DNA of 63,484 nucleotides, filler included, from Craspedostauros australis (GCA_030167865.1; 18 parts of 18 records of this genome joined end to end with filler, not necessarily neighbours in it), one strand, 5' to 3'; counted from the whole stretch's first letter, positions 34,154 to 54,284 are shown. Numbers and translations: made by a program. The notes: generated from the sequence alone by a model not told the origin.

Positions 34154-35075
34154 CCGCAGCACCACGCAACGACGTGTGGGACGCAGGCAGCCGCCGCAGC
34201 GGTTTCATTCCGATTCTTTGACCGTGATGCAGCAGCAGCAACAACAACAGCAGATGATGATGCAATACCAGCAACAACAACAACCACAGCGACACCACCC
34301 ATCCGCCATGATGGGACGTCGTGCGGTGCCTCATCGCGCCCATTCCGATCCGCGTCAGCTTCAGCAGCTGCAGCAACAGTACCACATGCACAACCGCGCC
34401 CATCCTGCAAACCAGATGAGACCCCGTCTGCCACCGCAGCACTTCAGAAACGGTCCCCCGGTCATCAACGATCCGCGTTGCGCGCNGGATTACGGACAGG
34501 TGTACCATGCGAATCTCGACAATGCCATCGGTGAGTACGATGTCTACAACCAATACGCGCACNACAACGGCTCGCAATACTCCTACGAAGATGACGAGCG
34601 AACGCAAGCATCGCGCAGAAGCATGCGCAAGCCAAAGACAGTGCGTCCTTCGGTTCGATTCTCAGTTGTGGAGGTCTTCGAACATCCCACCACGGTCGGC
34701 GTGGAACCCGTCCCCGGCGGACCGGCGCTCACCATGCAATGGAAGGCGTCGGGGCACTGGGTCATGCAGATCGACAACTACCTCGACTACGTCAAGCACG
34801 CTGCCAAGATGCGCAACAGGAGCGGCAAGCCACCGCCGGCGTTGGCCAACAGCACCGCCTCGGACACCATCTACAGCACCTACAATCACAACTACGTCCC
34901 GTTGACGGCAACGGAACGCTACGACAGATTGACCCACAACGGCGTCCCCTTCACCAAGATCCAAAGCTCCATGCTAGAATCGCAGTACACGTACCAGCAA
35001 CGTCTCGAGACCAAGCTCACGGAGTGCATCCTGGATCTCAAGACGCAGAGACAGAACGCGCTCGCCGCAACTTAA
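34154..35075 (+). CDS. Gln-rich protein with C-terminal CSRNP-N-like domain, 5' partial
   Basis: PolyQ region, then SVRFSVVEVFEHPTTVGVEPVPGGPALTMQW...IDNY...PLTATERYDRL..NGV...QQRLET. Same motif order as the 2885 gene. Confidence 0.7.
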
Positions 35076-35570
35076 TGCTACGTCGTTTAGAGCACGCAAC
35101 TCGGCGTCATGATTATTCTTGTTCTGTGATATGATAGTATTGGGTACCATGCTGTTCGTGTCGAGCCATCCCGGCGATGATCGAGATGGAGTTCAATCGT
35201 GGCGCATGCGAACTCTTGGCGGAACGAGTACGATGCCAAAGCCGTCATGGTCGCACACAACACACACGCAGGGACTATCGAATGACTCAACGGACTACAG
35301 AACATCGAGTTCGATCGCACACATTCCTTCTTCGTGTTTCTTTCATTTTGTTTGTGTGTGTCGATGTTGAGAAAGATCTTACGGCAAACCAGGGTGCGAT
35401 CATGGAACAGAGAAACAGAACGTGCGAACAAGACAACGACAACCTTGCTATTCCTTGCAGCAGCTTGGTCTCATACTATCAGCCAGCATCTTCATCATAA
35501 GACCGTGAACACATTGAGCAATCATCCAGCAATTGTTTGTCTACCAACAGCTCAACAACCAACGACCAAC

Positions 35571-36643
35571 ATGCCGAATGTCTCAGACAGACAACTCATT
35601 CGTGCTGCTGTTACAGGTGATCTGTCAGTATTGAAGGAATGGAAGAAGCAGAACGAAGGACGTGATGTCAACACGGTCAAATGCGGCAATGGCTACACTT
35701 CACTTCATTGGGCATGCGTTGGAGGCAGCCTGGAATGTGTGAAGTACCTCATCGAATCAACCAACGCCGATGTCAACTGCAAAGACAAAGGTGGCGACAC
35801 TCCACTTCATGAGGCATGCTATGAAGGCAGCCTGGAGTGTGTCAAGTACCTCATCGAATCAGCCAACGCCGATGTCAACTGCAAGAACAACATTGGCGAC
35901 ACTCCACTTCATCGGGCATGCGTTGGAGGCAGCCTGGAATATGTGAAGTACCTCATCGAATCAACCAACGCCGATGTCAACTGCAAGAACAACATTGGTT
36001 GGACTCCACTTCATTGGGCATGCATCTACGGCCGTTATGAATGCGTCGAGTACCTCATCGAATCAACCAACGCCGATGTCAACTGCAAGAACAACGATGG
36101 CAGCACTCCCCTTCATGTGGCATGCTATAAAGGCCGTTATGAATGCGTCGAGTACCTCATCGAATCAACCAAGGTCAATATCGACATCCAAAACAACGAC
36201 AACAAAACACCCGTCGAACTAATCACAGCGAACAAGCAGGTCAAGATGATGACATCAATCATGAAGCGTCTCGGTCATCTCAGTCGTCGCAACTTGCAAC
36301 TGCAGACACAGCTGCAAACAGAGACGCAGGTGCGCAAGCAAAGCAACACAAACACCATCACAACACCAACCAAGCACAACAATCCTAAAATCCACACAAC
36401 AACCAACATCAGCATCGACCAAGATCGTCGCAGCGCTGTTCGTTCTGAGGCCAAGGCAGACATCACCTTCCTGTGCGGACAAGGCGACGAACAACAGCCA
36501 ATCAAAGCAAACTCCGGAGTCCTCATGGTCACTGTTCCGTCCATTCAGACATTGATCGGCTCGGGAATCCAACATCAGCATGTCGATGACGGCACTGATG
36601 ACGGCACTGATTCTGCCACTGCCCTCACCCGCAGGCTCATCCC
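35571..36643 (+). CDS. Ankyrin-repeat protein with coiled-coil linker and the start of a BTB/POZ domain, 3' partial
   Basis: Five 34-aa GxTPLHxAC repeats (35691-36200) plus caps, then ADITFLCG....IKANSGVL typical of a BTB N-terminus. The ORF runs into the linker. Confidence 0.88.
35691..36200 (+). repeat. Five tandem 102-bp coding repeats with high nucleotide identity
   Basis: Units start at 35691, 35793, 35895, 35997 and 36099. CTTCAT, GCATGC and TACCTCATCGAATCA are invariant. Confidence 0.93.
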
Positions 36644-36827
36644 NNNNNNNNNNNNNNNNNNNNNNNNNNNNNNNNNNNNNNNNNNNNTTAATTAATTAAN
36701 NNNNNNNNNNNNNNNNNNNNNNNNNNNNNNNNNNNNNNNNNNNGACAGATTCATGGACCAGCCACCAATCTCCGACGCACCAATCAAAAGCAACAGGCAG
36801 AACAGAATGTCCGCCCCCAGCGAACTC

Positions 36828-36916
36828 GCATCACACATCACACATCACACATCACACATCACACATCACACACCACACATCACACATCACACATCACACA
36901 CCACACACCACACACC
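36828..36916. repeat. 7-bp microsatellite (CACATCA/CACACCA)n
   Basis: Read directly. Confidence 0.88.
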
Positions 36917-37872: not shown

Positions 37873-40800
37873 GGAGATCCTCATGCAGCTTGGGTGGCCC
37901 TCGGACGCGTCTACGAGCAGCGCACTGCGCCTATGAAGGCAAAGTTGCTGGCGGAGATCAACGCGATGCGATTGAAGAAGGGAGAGAATCCGGATCTCTT
38001 CTTGACGGACATGGAGGTCCTTCGCAACCGACTGATCGACCAGGAGGTGATCATCGACGCGGAGCAGTTCAACATGCTCGTACTCAACGCGCTCTGCCGC
38101 GAGTACGAGATGGACGTGAAGCTGCTCGAACTCAAGTTCCACGGAAAGGAACGAGAGATGACTGTGGGCGACATCCGCNAAGCTGTNAGNCTNACCTACG
38201 ACCGCCACCATCTCAAANATGGTTATAAGCGCGCAGGCAACAGCANCAACGAGGAGCTCGCTCTGTTCGGAGCTGGACAGTTCAAGGGAAACTGTCGCAA
38301 CTGCGGTGCCTACGGGCACAAGAAGGCGGACTGTCGTGCGCCAGCCAAGGGAGGCAACAACACAAGGGGCGGTGGGTCCAAGAAGAAGGGCAACCACGCC
38401 AACGCCAAGGGCGGATCCAAGAAAGGCGGATTCGACGGCAAGTGCAACTACTGCGGAAAAGCAGGGCACAAGATCGTCCAATGCTTCAAGCTGAAGGCAG
38501 CAATGAAAGAAGCTGAGAGCGCCAACATGGCGATGGACGGCGACGACGCGATGGACGATATGGCACTCGTCATCGCAGACGGTGATTTCATTGAGATTGA
38601 CGATCTCGACGAGATCGAACTCGAAAGCACAATCGAAGAGGATCTTTTCGAAATCATGGAGACGTTCCCTTCGACGGAAGCAGTCGAATCACCAACCAAC
38701 GAAGGCATCCGCGATCTCATGAACGGTGACTTGCTCGAATCAGACGAGAGCATCGGGGACACCGAAATCGCAATGCCAGGGATCGACGTCAACAATGCGC
38801 CACCTGCGCAAGGTGAAGAAGCAACAGGCGCTCGGATGAGTAACGCCATCGACTACTTCCTACGCGACGAAATCGATCGCATGTGTGAACGGAGCAGGAT
38901 GGACGCATGGTGTCCAATCTGCCTCGCGCGTGGAGCGATGTATTCGTGGTGCACAGGATGCACGGAGTTCGACGTGTTCAAGATTCGAGCACGCTGGGCG
39001 TTCAGAGACATCCCGACAACCACGGAGCCTGAAAGGATTCGCCGTCGAGCAATCCTGAGCAGGTTCAACTGTTTGGAAGATGCAGTCAGGGTTTCCCTAT
39101 CCAACGTATTGGAAGCCAACGATGTGCGTATCAACGACGCGCTCCTCTGTTTCGATGTGAGAAAGAAGTCCATCGAAGACGGAGTCAACTGCATGGGAGC
39201 TCGGGAGCTCTACTACATGCTGACTCAAATCGGCTTCAACGGAGCATTCGACGTGTCATGCAAGATTGTGGTCATCAACGAACTGCTCGAAGAGAAAGGG
39301 CTACCACTACTTCCCAAGCACCTGATCATGAGGATGAGCAAGATGGCCGCATCAAGACTCATGTGGATGCACAACTGGGAGGATACCGAAGTACGCGACG
39401 GGCTGGAATGCCCAGAACTCCCCAAGACAAGACCACTTGTGGGAAGTCCTCAACACCAAGTCGAGATGATGGAGCATTTCAATACAGCAAGATTCGGCCA
39501 CGAAATGGCCATGGTGATCGAGGATCACGAGTCGAATGAGAGCAACCGCGAGCTGGTTGCACCAGACCAACATGAAGCAAACACATGGTTGGGAGATACC
39601 GGCGCATCCTGCCATTTGACTAATAATGATGAGGGCATGACGAATGTGCGCCTCTCTAATTTCTCTGTGAAGGTGGGAAGCGGAAAATTCCTCCGCGCCA
39701 CCAAGGTCGGTGATCTACGCATGCGAGTGATGCAGAAGGACGGCAAGAGTGCCATCATCATCCTGAAGGGAGTGCGCTACGTGCCTAAGCTCTGGGTCAA
39801 TCTGTTGAGCATCGGCAAGGCGCTCCATAACGGATTCAACATCAGCAACAAGGGCGTGATCATCGCGCTAGATAAGAACGGGCAGCGCATCCGATTCGAT
39901 CGGATCATGGCAACTCACAGCGGATTCGTGCTCGGTGTGAACATGGTACCTGCCCCCAAGAACAGAGAAATGGCGAATGTCGGGCTTGACACAAAGAAGC
40001 CCATGGATGTGAATAAGATTCATAAAATGCTAGGCCACGTTGACTCTTACACGATCTCCAGGACGGCAAGACAATATGGATGGAATATCACTGGGACTCT
40101 CAATCCATGCGAGGACTGCGCGATCGGAAAGGCGAAGCAAAAACGCCTGACCAAAACTCTCCAACTACGAGCGAAGAAGGTCGGAGAACGACTCTTCATG
40201 GATACTTCAAGTGTCCAAGCCACGAGTTTCGGGCACGGAAAGTACTGGTTGCTGGTCATCGACGACTACAGCGACTACTGCTGGAGCTACTTCGTTAAAG
40301 AGAAGAGCGAAGTCGGCGCCAAGCTGCTATCATTGTTGAAGTGGCTATCAGGCAATCAACAAGTGACAGTGAAGAATATCAGATGCGACAATGCCGGAGA
40401 AAACTACAGCGCAGAGGCACTACTACTGAAGGCAGGCTTTGCCCCAACCTTCGAATACACCGCCGCATCAACTCCTCAACAGAACGGAAGAGTGGAACGG
40501 AAGTTCGCTGTTCTCTACGGTAAGGTCAGGTCAATGCTGAACCAGGCGCACCTACCGAGACAGCTGCGCGGCAAACTATGGGCAGAGGCAGCAAGGAACG
40601 CAACGCAGATCGAGAACATCATCGAGACGAAGTCGAGAGAACCTGCATGCCTGCTACTCAATGGACAGACCCCAACTTACGCGAAAAGGTTGCGTATCTT
40701 TGGGGAGATCGGAATGGTCTACATCGGCAGTCGCGCAATCAAAGCAAAACTGGATGATAGATCCAAGCCAGCCATGTTCGTCGGATACGGACAGTCTCAT

Positions 40801-43155
40801 GCGAATGGAGTATACCGCATGATGAATCTGGCAACTACGAGAATCCTGATCACCAGAGACGTGACATGGATGAACCAGTCGTATGGGCAATTCAAAGGTG
40901 TTGAGAATGCCAACAGAACGCAATGGGTGGATCTGGAAGACGACGACTTCGATGCCGGAGCAGCCCTCCGCAATACGAAGGTTACTTGGGAGCGTGACAC
41001 GAGTATCGCAAGAGAAGCGAAGGCCGTATCAGCTGATCGAAGCAGAGAGCCCGGAACAGACTACAAAGATAACCAAGGCTACGCATCGAAGCAAGATGAA
41101 CTGCTACCTGCCCAAGAGGACGAACCATCGGACGATGAAGACGACGATGAATTCGGAAGGGACGAGACACGAGTGACTCGAAGACAAGCCGCCGAAGGCA
41201 GAGAGATCGAGCAACCCCCAGCGAGACCTGTGGCAAAGATGCCAAGGATGCTACGGGGTTTGGTCCCGTACAACCATCCGCCAGGATATGAATCCGACTC
41301 AGAATCAAGCAGTGGAGACGATGAACCAGCTGAGGCAGCTGAGACGACCCCTGCAGCTACTGGCGAACGAGACTTCCATTCGAACATATCCATGTTCAAT
41401 CGAGACGTGGCGAGTCTAATGATCGACACCACGGAAGGGAGAATGAGGCTGGATGAGTTCATCGCAGCAAGCCAACGAGTTGAAAGAGGGGATTGGAACG
41501 AGACGTCCGAGCATGCATACACGGCTATTATGCTGGACCCAACCACCTTCGAGGAATGCTGGGATCATGCAGATCCAGCGAAGCGAAGGAAGTGGCGGGA
41601 GGCCATCAATAAGGAGTTCCACGATATGACGAGACGAGGAGTCTGGCTGAAGATCAAGAAGAACAAGATGCCGAGGGATCGGCGATGTGTGAAGACGAAA
41701 TGGGTCTTCAAGGAGAAGAGGAATGGAGTCTTTCGCGCCAGGTTGGTTGCCTGTGGATATTCACAGATCGCTGGAGTGGATTTTTCCGCTCATCATGCAC
41801 CAGTGATCCACGATGCAACGTACCGAGTGATGCTGACTATGAAGATGTTGTTGAAGACAGACAGCATCATCATCGACTTCGAAACCGCCTTCCTGCACGG
41901 AGACCTTGAGGAAGAGATCTACATGCAATGTCCCAAGGGAATGGAGCATGAACCGGACGAATGCCTGCTGCTGAAGAAGACCATCTACGGGTTGGTTCAG
42001 AGCGCAAGGCAATGGAACAAGAAGCTTGTGAACATCCTGATCAAGCTTGGCTTCCGGCAGAGCAAAGTGGACCCATGCCTGCTAATTCGGAATCGGGAAG
42101 GGAATCTCGTCCTCATCGGGACGTACGTCGATGATTGTCTGTGCATCGGAAGCACCCTCGAACTGAAGCGACTGGTGAAGGACATCAAGTGTGAACGATT
42201 CGGAATCAAGATCGAGGATGGACTCGAAGACTACTTGAGTTGCCGGATCGAATTCAACGAGAGCGAAACCAACTGCTGGGTGAACCAGCCACACATCATC
42301 AAGAAAATCACGGATACGTTCAAGAGCGACGTGACGAAGCTTCAACGATACGGAACCCCAGGCACACCAGGCCAAGGGATCCAAAGGAACAGTGAAGCAC
42401 CCAAGGTCGACAAGGATCGACACAGCAGATACCGCAGTGGAGTGGGCACGCTACTATACCTGGTGAAGCATTCGAGACCAGACATCGCGAATGCAGTCCG
42501 AGAACTCACGAAGGTGTTGGATGGACCAACAACCACAGCTTACAAGGAGATGCTAAGAGTGATGAAGTTCGTGTCGGACACGAGAGAATACGGATTGAGG
42601 ATGGAGCCCAAGCCATTGAACAACAACGCTTGGAAGATCGTGGTGTACACCGACAGCGAGTTCGCTGGAGACAAGGACAACCGCATCAGCGTTGGAGGAC
42701 ATCTGGTCCTGCTACAAGGAGTGCCTATCATCTGGAGATCGAAGGCGCAACGCAGCGTGACACTGAGCTCGACCGAGGCCGAGTATGTCGCACTGTCAGA
42801 AGCTGGAAAGGAGATCCGCTTTTTGACTCAACTGATGGAGGACATCGGGTTGAAGATGGAGAAACCTGCAGATGTGATGGTCGACAACGTGGGGGCGATC
42901 TTCATCGCCACCAATCCATCGACATCAGCGAGAACGAGACACATCGATATACGCAACCACTTCATCAGAGAGCTGATTGCTAACAAGGAGGCGAGAGCTC
43001 GATTCGTGAAGTCAGAAGATAACATCTCCGACGGATTCACGAAGAACACTAAGAAGGAGATCTACGATCGACACAAGGGGAGCATCATTCAGCCCAGGTC
43101 AGCATTGGACTGAACATGGTGGATGATATGGTTGGAGCGGCAATGGAAGGGTGTC
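37873..43155 (+). mobile_element. Ty1/copia (CoDi-like) LTR retrotransposon internal region, ending at the PPT and first 4 nt of the 3' LTR
   Basis: Domain order Gag-PR-IN-RT-RH. Purine tract GGAAGGG (43145-43151) is followed by TGTC at the contig end. Confidence 0.95.
37894..43113 (+). CDS. Copia Gag-Pol polyprotein, 1739 aa or more, 5' partial, uninterrupted
   Basis: Two CX2CX4HX4C knuckles (CRNCGAYGHKKADC, CNYCGKAGHKIVQC), protease WLGDTGASCH, HHCC (HKMLGH..CEDC), integrase D..D..E (FMD, RCDNAGE, QNGRVER), RT (RARLVACG, YGLVQS, YVDD), RNase H (YTDSEFA, STEAEY, RHIDIR). Confidence 0.95.
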   Translation: MALGRVYEQRTAPMKAKLLAEINAMRLKKGENPDLFLTDMEVLRNRLIDQEVIIDAEQFNMLVLNALCREYEMDVKLLELKFHGKEREMTVGDIRXAXXXTYDRHHLKXGYKRAGNSXNEELALFGAGQFKGNCRNCGAYGHKKADCRAPAKGGNNTRGGGSKKKGNHANAKGGSKKGGFDGKCNYCGKAGHKIVQCFKLKAAMKEAESANMAMDGDDAMDDMALVIADGDFIEIDDLDEIELESTIEEDLFEIMETFPSTEAVESPTNEGIRDLMNGDLLESDESIGDTEIAMPGIDVNNAPPAQGEEATGARMSNAIDYFLRDEIDRMCERSRMDAWCPICLARGAMYSWCTGCTEFDVFKIRARWAFRDIPTTTEPERIRRRAILSRFNCLEDAVRVSLSNVLEANDVRINDALLCFDVRKKSIEDGVNCMGARELYYMLTQIGFNGAFDVSCKIVVINELLEEKGLPLLPKHLIMRMSKMAASRLMWMHNWEDTEVRDGLECPELPKTRPLVGSPQHQVEMMEHFNTARFGHEMAMVIEDHESNESNRELVAPDQHEANTWLGDTGASCHLTNNDEGMTNVRLSNFSVKVGSGKFLRATKVGDLRMRVMQKDGKSAIIILKGVRYVPKLWVNLLSIGKALHNGFNISNKGVIIALDKNGQRIRFDRIMATHSGFVLGVNMVPAPKNREMANVGLDTKKPMDVNKIHKMLGHVDSYTISRTARQYGWNITGTLNPCEDCAIGKAKQKRLTKTLQLRAKKVGERLFMDTSSVQATSFGHGKYWLLVIDDYSDYCWSYFVKEKSEVGAKLLSLLKWLSGNQQVTVKNIRCDNAGENYSAEALLLKAGFAPTFEYTAASTPQQNGRVERKFAVLYGKVRSMLNQAHLPRQLRGKLWAEAARNATQIENIIETKSREPACLLLNGQTPTYAKRLRIFGEIGMVYIGSRAIKAKLDDRSKPAMFVGYGQSHANGVYRMMNLATTRILITRDVTWMNQSYGQFKGVENANRTQWVDLEDDDFDAGAALRNTKVTWERDTSIAREAKAVSADRSREPGTDYKDNQGYASKQDELLPAQEDEPSDDEDDDEFGRDETRVTRRQAAEGREIEQPPARPVAKMPRMLRGLVPYNHPPGYESDSESSSGDDEPAEAAETTPAATGERDFHSNISMFNRDVASLMIDTTEGRMRLDEFIAASQRVERGDWNETSEHAYTAIMLDPTTFEECWDHADPAKRRKWREAINKEFHDMTRRGVWLKIKKNKMPRDRRCVKTKWVFKEKRNGVFRARLVACGYSQIAGVDFSAHHAPVIHDATYRVMLTMKMLLKTDSIIIDFETAFLHGDLEEEIYMQCPKGMEHEPDECLLLKKTIYGLVQSARQWNKKLVNILIKLGFRQSKVDPCLLIRNREGNLVLIGTYVDDCLCIGSTLELKRLVKDIKCERFGIKIEDGLEDYLSCRIEFNESETNCWVNQPHIIKKITDTFKSDVTKLQRYGTPGTPGQGIQRNSEAPKVDKDRHSRYRSGVGTLLYLVKHSRPDIANAVRELTKVLDGPTTTAYKEMLRVMKFVSDTREYGLRMEPKPLNNNAWKIVVYTDSEFAGDKDNRISVGGHLVLLQGVPIIWRSKAQRSVTLSSTEAEYVALSEAGKEIRFLTQLMEDIGLKMEKPADVMVDNVGAIFIATNPSTSARTRHIDIRNHFIRELIANKEARARFVKSEDNISDGFTKNTKKEIYDRHKGSIIQPRSALD

Positions 43156-49008: not shown

Positions 49009-49109
49009 NNNNNNNNNNNNNNNNNNNNNNNNNNNNNNNNNNNNNNNNNNNNTTAATTAATTAANNNNNNNNNNNNNNNNNNNNNNNNNNNNNNNNNNNN
49101 NNNNNNNNT

Positions 49110-49883
49110 CAAACATTGATCGACTCTGGAATCCACCATCTATCTTTGACCAAGCCATCATCCCCACCGTCATCGTCATCCTCGCTGTCATCGTCATGGG
49201 ACGATTCTATCGCTGATCCTGTCGCTGACCCTGTCGCTGTCCCTGTCCCTGATCCGATCACTGACTCCATCCAAACCACCGTGGCTCTTCCTGACCTCCA
49301 ACCCAAATATGTCCGCCATGTCATCGAATGCATCTACAAGGGGGAGATATCCTTCGATGAGAGCGATCATGCCGGTGGCGATGACCAGCCAACTCCCATC
49401 CTCAATGGACAACACGATCTGCAGCAGCTGATCCTTGTGGCCAACGAGTTCGGCTTCTGGCGACTCAAGCTTGTTCTTGAAGCGGAGTTGGCCCACAAGC
49501 ACCTCACAAAGGACACCATGATTGATACACTGATATTCGCCCATCAACACAGCTGTTCAGTGTTGGAAGATGCGGCAATGAGAGTGATATCTCAAAATAC
49601 AAAGGCTTGTCTTGCTCATCCAGATTTCAACAAGATCACTCAAGAACCTCAACTGATGGGAGGCATTCAAGTCCTTTGCAGTGGAGGAACAGTCAGCGAT
49701 GGTGTTGATGACGAGTACAGTCGCATGTCTATGATGGAGCTGTACAAGGTTGTGGATGAAGATGAGGGTAGTGCGCAAGTGGATTCATACATGGATCGTG
49801 TAACATTGGTGGGTTTCGTGCGTTCCATCAAATCATCCTTTGAAAGTGAGAGCAACAGCGCTGCTGAGGAGGAGGACAAGTGA
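49110..49883 (+). CDS. BTB/POZ C-terminal half plus BACK-like helices, 5' partial; paralogue of the 35571 gene
   Basis: LPDLQPKYVRHVIECIYKGEI, LILVANEFGFWRLKLVLEAEL, IDTLIFAHQHSCSVLEDAAM. Begins QTLIDSGIHH versus QTLIGSGIQH at about 36545. Confidence 0.82.
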   Translation, partial: QTLIDSGIHHLSLTKPSSPPSSSSSLSSSWDDSIADPVADPVAVPVPDPITDSIQTTVALPDLQPKYVRHVIECIYKGEISFDESDHAGGDDQPTPILNGQHDLQQLILVANEFGFWRLKLVLEAELAHKHLTKDTMIDTLIFAHQHSCSVLEDAAMRVISQNTKACLAHPDFNKITQEPQLMGGIQVLCSGGTVSDGVDDEYSRMSMMELYKVVDEDEGSAQVDSYMDRVTLVGFVRSIKSSFESESNSAAEEEDK

Positions 49884-51464: not shown

Positions 51465-51644
51465 TGTTGGCAAGTTCCGCGCACGGTAACCTACGATCGT
51501 GGAAGATGGTGTTGGTTGATAGTCGTCTGTTTGCTATTTCATTACTTGGCTACTCCGATGCTCTCGGTGTACGCCGTTCTCTTGCCCGATGCTCTCGGTG
51601 CTTCAATCTGTTTCGTAGATTCAGTCTCCGACTATGAGTCGGTA
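51465..51644 (-). mobile_element. Distal end of an LTR-family copy (...GCGGAACTTGCCAACA on the minus strand)
   Basis: TGTTGGCAAGTTCCGC on the plus strand is identical to 53627-53642, with unrelated left flanks. The downstream sequence matches 315-430. Confidence 0.72.
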
Positions 51645-53626: not shown

Positions 53627-54284
53627 TGTTGGCAAGTTCCGCTCATGGATACTCTTGCGACTGTGAATGACAGTGTTGGTGGTGGTGGTGGTGGTGGTGG
53701 TGGTGGTAGTTGCGATTCTGTTTGCTGGTTCATTATGTTGCTATTCCAATTCTGTCTTGGAGTCTCCTGACTATGAGTCAGCATGCAAGGTGATCTTTTA
53801 CGATTGCTCGTTTTCTCTCTCTCTCTCTNNNNNNNNNNNNNNNNNNNNNNNNNNNNNNNNGTACTCGATACGTGCTCCGTATTTGATACGTATTCAGTTG
53901 TCTCATCCTCTACTGGCCTACTACTTTGTGTGCAGTTTCCAACATCTCATCCGAACTCCTCCTTGCATATCCACGATCTCAATGTCCCTTGGTCATCAAA
54001 TCTTCGCCTTCTCGATCTGATGTGGAGACAGATGTCGACATGGTGACATGATGACATCTTGTCAACGTCAGCTGTCACCTTCCACAGTCCTTCTGATTCC
54101 ATGTTCCATCAATGATGCGATGGTCTGGTGAGGATATTGTCATTTGAGGTTTAGTTGGGAAATACATTGAGCTTCACTTGATGCCATGCATTTCCTTTGA
54201 TGGATGGACGGACGATGTTCCTGATACTCTCAGAAATCGTTGATTGCAAATTTCCTCCAGAAATTCTGCTCGTTTTCATGTGTT
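53627..54284 (-). mobile_element. LTR-family copy (distal about 660 bp) abutting the copia relic
   Basis: Terminus TGTTGGCAAG at 53627. Co-linear with 300-910, including the CT microsatellite and AACTCCTCCTTG..ATC block. Confidence 0.78.

Follow-up and report, generated by a model that had tools for sequence, protein, structure and literature searches.

Ankyrin repeats (ANK) and BTB domains are combined in animal ABTB1, ABTB2 and BTBD11 and in plant NPR1 and BOP, and we know of no protein among these with near-identical repeats. In DARPins, the randomised set consists of repeat positions 2, 3, 5, 13, 14 and 33. The ANK-N5C library was randomised at positions 2, 3, 5, 10, 13 and 33, which its authors assign to beta-turn 1 and helix 1, together forming the binding surface (PMC4308713). 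Natural diversification of repeat surfaces has been described in fungal NLR proteins, whose ANK, TPR and WD repeats are reported to be highly conserved internally, to be polymorphic in number and to be under selection at positions of the binding face (PMC4986451, Dyrka et al. 2014). For the ANK repeats, the same study gives five selected positions on the concave face and a class threshold of at least 85% unit identity (PMC4986451). Families of MATH-BTB adaptors were expanded in monocots, and evidence for diversifying selection in them has been presented (PMC3030570).

The window, by which we mean the whole stretch of 63,484 nucleotides analysed here from Craspedostauros australis (GCA_030167865.1), is not continuous genome. 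Roughly 18 short contigs make it up, linked by N44-TTAATTAATTAA-N44 spacers, 17 of which lie within 24562–60334, and it runs as a chain of short contigs from ~24.5 kb onward. The spacers close every one of the six frames with a stop, gene order across them is meaningless, and contigs adjacent here need not be adjacent in the genome. The reading frame under study, P0001, lies on one of these contigs and is cut by its end (Table 1). It contained no introns and was stop-free up to that point, its start agreed with the conserved N-terminus of its relatives in the family alignment, and it was collinear with two of them, P0004 and P0072. Pfam assigned it Ank_4 (237.8 bits), Ank (183.7), Ank_2 (177.5), Ank_3 (140) and Ank_5 (129.9), against curated cut-offs of 21–27 bits, and nothing other than ankyrin families rose above noise in a Pfam search of its 358 residues. 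P0001 is an ankyrin repeat protein of the Pfam clan Ank.

Table 1. Features of the ankyrin-BTB gene, its contig and the second family copy, in window coordinates.
Feature	Coordinates	Strand	Evidence and remarks
Contig with the ANK-BTB gene	34154..36643	.	2490 bp; artificial spacers on both sides (map of N runs and spacers)
ANK-BTB reading frame (P0001, 358 aa)	35571..36643	+	ATG at 35571, translation; 3' end cut by contig end
N-terminal capping repeat, aa 1–40	35571..35690	+	Inside Ank_2 match 9–106; conserved in family alignment
Five 102-bp units, i.e., five 34-residue internal ankyrin repeats	35691..36200	+	Tandem Repeats Finder, repeat family D5, translation, Pfam Ank E 5.7e-56
C-terminal capping half-repeat, aa 211 to ~235	36201..36275	+	Aligns with the final repeat plus helix in P0004 and P0072; helices 280–313 in the P0004 model
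Low-complexity linker, Q/T/N-rich	36276..36407	+	Equivalent in the P0004 model (306–357) has pLDDT <50; poorly conserved here in family alignment
Conserved pre-BTB motif and truncated N-terminal BTB part	36408..36643	+	Matches P0004 and P0072 at the onset of their Pfam BTB
Artificial contig joint, N44 + TTAATTAATTAA + N44	36644..36743	.	Spacer map
Paralogue P0132, 3' portion (257 aa, stop TGA 49881–49883)	49110..49883	+	tblastn with P0004, P0072, P0122 and P0124; translation

Several other elements were observed in the window. The contig of P0001 also carries, upstream on the plus strand (34154–35075), a Q-rich gene with a truncated 5' end and a stop at 35073–35075, in whose last 169 residues Pfam found no family. 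The next contig carries at its start a 7-bp microsatellite, CATCACA, of 12.3 copies (36829–36914). A separate contig holds a long plus-strand open reading frame (37873–43113) for a retrotransposon polyprotein of the Ty1/copia type (RVT_2 at 134.9 bits, Pol beta-barrel and a retroviral SH3-like domain), with a few single Ns near its 5' end. Dispersed repeats of ~80% identity (families D9, D13, D17 and D18) pair 610–909 with 53982–54281, and 342–479 with 51531–51600 and 53763–53828; shared by the first large contig and later small ones, they probably represent either a repeated element or contigs that are diverged paralogues or alleles.

The fragmented state of the assembly bears on the array itself, which could be several paralogous arrays collapsed or fused into one consensus. 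Its contig measures 2.5 kb, contains single Ns and ends inside the gene. De Bruijn contigs of a public sequencing run (X1), the kind of which is only guessed and which may be the window's own source, were broken to ~70–120 bases in this region, and some of them fit two places. On the other hand, the frame stays open through all five units in an order collinear with the relatives, and three X1 contigs matched exactly, with 0 other letters, at 35647–35749, 35965–36059 and 36090–36161, covering two unit junctions, although they are perhaps not independent of the assembly. We consider an artefact of this kind very improbable.

Tandem Repeats Finder returned a period of 102 with 4.7 copies and 85% matches at 35690–36172, and all five units, starting at 35691, 35793, 35895, 35997 and 36099, are in frame with the ATG. 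The original prediction had described five 102-bp ankyrin repeats here, and every codon and residue that it quoted was confirmed. CTT CAT, GCA TGC and TAC CTC ATC GAA TCA use the same codons in all five units and AAC GCC GAT GTC AAC TGC in four of the five, while the variable residues read Y/D/D/W/S, W/E/R/W/V, VG/YE/VG/IY/YK and G/I/I/D/D across units 1–5. The hypervariable codons of the unit are 2, 7, 10, 11 and 34. In unit 5 the tail departs from the other units as well, but this reflects its match to the conserved last loop of the family and not hypervariability.

The same prediction had called the units nearly identical at silent sites, which proved overstated, as only 11 of 34 codons were identical across all five units and the Nei–Gojobori pS, at 0.04–0.14 among units 1–3, was 0.24–0.35 for all other pairs. 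With pS in this range of 0.04–0.35, the unit duplications are not extremely recent. Pairs of units shared 71–91% of nucleotides and 47–85% of amino acids (mean amino-acid identity 68%), and their pairwise dN/dS values (0.4–2.4) were scattered around 1. Set against the fungal NLR class, which requires at least 85% unit identity over at least 100 residues, the array fell short, with a mean of 0.68 and one of ten pairs reaching 0.85, and Pfam found no NACHT/NB-ARC (NOD) domain in P0001 or in nine family relatives; the idea that the repeats are homogenised as in those proteins was not borne out.

The five units differ by at least 45 substitutions, of which 20 (44%) fall in codons 2, 7, 10, 11 and 34. 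The clustering that had been proposed is therefore present and far exceeds chance (binomial P 1.7e-6 for 5 of 34 codons, a set chosen post hoc), but these codons hold less than half of the differences and not, as had also been proposed, most of them. With six codons fixed beforehand, 19 of the 45 substitutions were captured (P 1e-4), whichever of two six-position sets was used.

In canonical 33-residue numbering, unit positions 34, 2, 7, 10 and 11 correspond to positions 3, 5, 10, 13 and 14. All five lie inside the union of the ANK-N5C and DARPin sets, in agreement with the proposal that the variable codons sit on the beta-turn/helix-1 face, and change in the array is concentrated on this binding face. 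The whole scope of the selection test is the five units of 34 codons each. To these we fitted a fixed-partition codon model (F3x4 frequencies, branch lengths in common) on the best topology, ((2,3),(4,5),1), and obtained a whole-unit omega of 0.78. With the caveat that repeats recombine and that several hypervariable codons differ at two or three bases, changes that codon models count as several events and that inflate the test, omega reached 5.6 for the DARPin set (LRT 9.99, p 0.0016), 11.2 for the ANK-N5C set (LRT 13.9, p 0.0002) and 11.5 for the union of the two (LRT 18.7, p 2e-5), the latter two fitted on the best topology only. Background omega outside the tested position sets was 0.39–0.58. 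On the two next-best topologies, the DARPin set gave an omega of 6.7–7.4 (p 0.0003–0.0004). In a parametric bootstrap under omega = 1, the observed LRT was reached in 0 of 80 simulations (maximum 8.0, 95th percentile 4.6).

A conservative count, which treats each codon replacement as a single event on the tree, gave 2.3–2.6 times as many nonsynonymous events per site at the pre-set positions as synonymous events per site (binomial P 0.025–0.048). Among 24 units of other family members, positions 11, 10, 2 and 7 had the highest entropy (3.44, 3.07, 3.04 and 2.95 bits, respectively), which is normal for any ankyrin family and alone is no sign of selection. Taken as a claim of positive selection, the original prediction agrees with a nominally significant omega above 1 at positions fixed beforehand (p 0.0002–0.0016) and is borderline on the event count. 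The data are suggestive of positive selection on the binding-face positions of P0001 and are not proof of it, and for the family the signal comes from one short contig and is likewise suggestive.

These numbers can also be read as a neutral history, in which units were duplicated in tandem and unconstrained surface positions drifted with an omega of ~1 under a framework kept by purifying selection. The whole-unit omega, the scatter of pairwise dN/dS around 1 and the borderline P of the conservative count all agree with such drift, and in every ankyrin family it is these hypervariable positions that vary most (PMC4308713). Drift accounts poorly, however, for an omega of 5.6–11 at pre-fixed positions, where omega = 1 was rejected by the likelihood ratio and by all 80 simulations, and the conservative ratio itself stays above 1. 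We judge the neutral history somewhat unlikely.

Further versions of the unit were seen in run X1, which contains 47% of the sampled words. At a likeness of at least 90%, 198 pieces of X1 contigs covered 1944 bases, with 59 pieces at 99% or more, 71 at 95–99% and 68 at 90–95%, and 45 of the 198 fitted two places. Eleven joints between pieces had letters between them. Ten of these were further versions of codons 10–13 set between P0001-like flanks (HS-GQ, ID-GH, AN-GH, KN-GH, RN-GH, RN-SS, IN-GH, MY-GK, DN-SE and YK-GH), and the eleventh was a different helix-2-to-turn loop. Loose ends led into paralogous N-termini and BTB starts. Such variants are visible only where the alignment breaks, which favours variable codons and makes them unusable for rates. 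Depth was 66–68 for the exact contigs across parts of the array vs. 12.9 on the upstream gene, where an exact X1 contig ends at 35078, a difference that is uninterpretable for a run whose kind is only guessed; the stretch 35090–35544 had no X1 cover and is uninformative. Two other runs, X2 and X3, gave no aligned pieces. Many related units exist in Craspedostauros australis.

Variation in repeat number was observed in a relative. P0122, P0130, P0133 and P0131 are forms of one Craspedostauros-type gene, 95–97% identical to P0131 outside the array, and they contain four, four, five and six units, respectively, with some middle units unique to one form. All four come from short-read transcript or contig assemblies in which repeats may be mis-joined; middle units with residues of their own cannot arise by mis-joining. 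Of the proposed repeat shuffling, variation in unit number and content is seen in the relative, within the limits of short-read assemblies; as an ongoing process in the organism of the window, shuffling is not supported.

A stronger version of this idea holds that P0001 is a shuffling, concertedly evolving receptor for non-self or pathogen proteins, similar to fungal NLRs, that feeds its targets to CUL3 in diatom defence. The many near-identical X1 units with different codons 10–13, the relative's forms with their differing repeat number and unit content, and the several paralogues per species would all fit, and there is the fungal precedent of conserved ANK units with number polymorphism and five selected concave-face positions (PMC4986451). 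Against it, the mean unit identity is 68% with a single pair of ten at 85%, pS values of up to 0.35 argue against strong ongoing homogenisation, the NOD domain is absent from P0001 by Pfam, and the relative's forms derive from short-read assemblies. We find such a receptor quite improbable, and active shuffling and a defence role for P0001 are speculation.

The array had also been predicted to be fused to a BTB domain. Only ~60 residues of the BTB region precede the contig end, and Pfam reported no BTB in P0001 at E <= 1. In alignments they coincide with the beginning of the BTB domain in P0004 (Pfam BTB 356–482) and P0072 (251–372), and from the first methionine to the BTB start P0001 was 37% identical to P0004 (E 5e-82) and 36% identical to P0072 (E 3e-61). 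By homology, the intact gene almost certainly includes a fusion to a BTB domain, which is not demonstrable in this truncated copy. The predicted fusion is accordingly backed by homology and by the fold of a paralogue in the window, and not directly, Pfam being blank on the truncated copy.

This paralogue, P0132, spans the second half of a BTB domain, a BACK-like helical domain and the conserved C-terminal helices of the family, and lies on the contig at 49109–50536. That contig was considered as the missing 3' end of P0001 and ruled out, because the overlap of 32 bases contains 4 differences and is followed by an unrelated inserted loop; P0132 is a different copy, since its overlap with P0001 differs and then diverges. 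In P0132, Pfam scored BACK just above its cut-off (21.6 vs. 20.9 bits) and part of a BTB domain at 16.5 bits. Its AlphaFold model had a mean pLDDT of 75.8, with 109 of 257 residues above 90, and matched the BTB-BACK part of SPOP, a substrate adaptor of Cullin-3 (CUL3), at Z 11.9–13.1 (rmsd 2.2–3.9, 122–138 residues aligned) and the SPOP C-terminal domain at Z 10.5 (rmsd 1.5, 63 residues). The top 34 rows of fold matches were all BTB proteins, CUL3 adaptors in many cases, and unrelated rows did not exceed Z 4.9. SPOP was followed in the list by KBTBD4, A55, gigaxonin, KLHL11, KBTBD2, KEAP1 and KLHL3, several of them solved bound to CUL3, and NPR1 appeared at Z 7.9. The Foldseek E-value for P0132 was, taken alone, marginal (1.1e-3), and phmmer of P0132 against PDB sequences gave chance-level rows only (E 0.76 and 0.98). 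As modelled, P0132 has an SPOP-type BTB plus BACK fold. The model of the full-length relative P0004 showed a confident ankyrin solenoid, a disordered linker, a BTB domain, a BACK-like region made of helices and, at the C-terminus, two further helices.

All full-length members carry a conserved pair of C-terminal motifs after the BACK-like part (P0132 200–257, window 49707–49880), predicted to form two helices, for which neither Pfam nor PDB gave a convincing match. In P0122, P0131 and P0133, forms of one Craspedostauros-type paralogue, the last ~25 residues are first hydrophobic and then basic, which resembles a tail anchor, and this member may be membrane-bound. P0132, unlike these, ends in an acidic tail.

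Membership in the class of CUL3 adaptors would follow from fold and domain order only. The BTB-BACK part could instead serve in oligomerisation, as a scaffold or in transcriptional co-regulation, as in some ANK plus BTB proteins, with the ankyrin array binding a fixed partner. The BTB domains of the family are divergent (24–34 bits) and have long inserted loops, and the NPR1 fold match points in the same direction. The best and clearly separated fold matches are nevertheless the BTB-BACK and C-terminal domain of SPOP (Z 10.5–13.1), followed by KBTBD4, KLHL11, KEAP1 and others, and Pfam BACK exceeds its cut-off in P0132. A role apart from CUL3 seems to us on the unlikely side, and we return to the reading of P0001 as part of a CUL3 adaptor below.

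The distribution of the family was investigated with the tail of P0001 (aa 195–357). HMMER found ten proteins at E <= 0.001 among 1.84 billion representatives; nine of the ten contained Pfam BTB (PF00651) at 24.0–34.4 bits (cut-off 20.5), and eight of these nine also contained ANK. The BACK-like part was present in the BTB-bearing relatives of P0001 as well. One candidate, P0129, was rejected as a fungal-type HET-ANK protein matching over 25 residues only. P0132 as a query for longer proteins retrieved only P0004, and residues 340–607 of P0004 retrieved seven proteins, namely family members already found and P0133. In metagenome contigs, one distant related locus (L001) was found at 32% identity. 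The named family members are all from Craspedostauros australis, with at least seven distinct paralogues, and the other members are JGI records; the window genome contains at least two copies, P0001 and P0132. A new, narrow, multi-copy diatom family with ANK, BTB and BACK is well supported by these searches. In literature on ankyrin and BTB in diatoms, judged by titles and the starts of abstracts, we found no paper on a diatom ANK-BTB family.

Family members had three to seven recognisable ankyrin units. Mean identity between units of the same protein was 0.38–0.44 in P0004, P0072, P0123, P0124 and P0128, 0.62–0.66 in the P0122/P0130/P0131 group and 0.68 in P0001; P0126 and P0127, with fewer than two complete units each, were left out of this scoring. 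As identities are high in P0001 and the P0122 group only, internal duplication has been recent in some members only.

On balance we favour, by a little over even chances, the view that the array serves as the module for substrate recognition in a truncated ANK-BTB-BACK gene, laid out as in SPOP with ANK in place of MATH, with a diversified binding face and putative recruitment of CUL3. P0001 is a member of a small multigene family in which an ankyrin array takes the place of MATH in an SPOP-like architecture. Its internal 34-residue repeats would have arisen by tandem duplication of units, and the units would since have evolved most rapidly at the target-contacting positions of the beta-turn and helix 1, which would fit selection for new or different binding specificities. 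The BTB-BACK part would dimerise or oligomerise and recruit CUL3, and proteins bound by the ankyrin array would be ubiquitinated. This recruitment, the substrates and any biological role of P0001 are inferred.

A broader proposal would make the family a CUL3-receptor family private to raphid diatoms, with ankyrin arrays diversifying by duplication and exchange from a large pool of near-identical 34-residue units together with positive selection on the binding face, and forming a recognition repertoire for foreign or fast-evolving proteins independent of fungal NLRs and of plant and nematode MATH-BTB proteins. We regard this as unlikely. Little is known of how diatoms recognise viruses, bacteria and parasites, and the family would, if the proposal is true, be a concrete place to look for immune-like recognition. 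It would then also represent a parallel in nature to designed ankyrin binders joined to a ubiquitin ligase, and a third independent case of binding-face diversification beside fungal NLR repeats and MATH-BTB expansions.

In comparison with designed ankyrin libraries, P0001 shares a fixed framework that varies at canonical positions 3, 5, 10, 13 and 14, and four of the six ANK-N5C positions are hypervariable in it. It differs in being natural, in having a unit of 34 rather than 33 residues and in varying little at canonical positions 2 and 33; the framework also varies, with at least 25 of the 45 substitutions outside the five hypervariable codons. Fungal NLR ankyrin repeats resemble the array in their similar tandem units, in variation on the concave binding face and in repeat-number variation, which here was seen in the relative, whereas the partner here is BTB-BACK and not NACHT/NB-ARC, and silent divergence is appreciable. 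NPR1 combines the same two domain types with BTB preceding ANK, and a sequence-level relation to ABTB1, ABTB2, BTBD11, NPR1 or BOP was not seen, the tail having matched only the ten proteins above. Compared with SPOP and the MATH-BTB(-BACK) adaptors, recognition is by MATH there and by a 34-residue ankyrin array here, identity is ~20%, and the BTB domain here has long inserted loops; in both, an N-terminal recognition domain is followed by BTB and a BACK-like helical domain.
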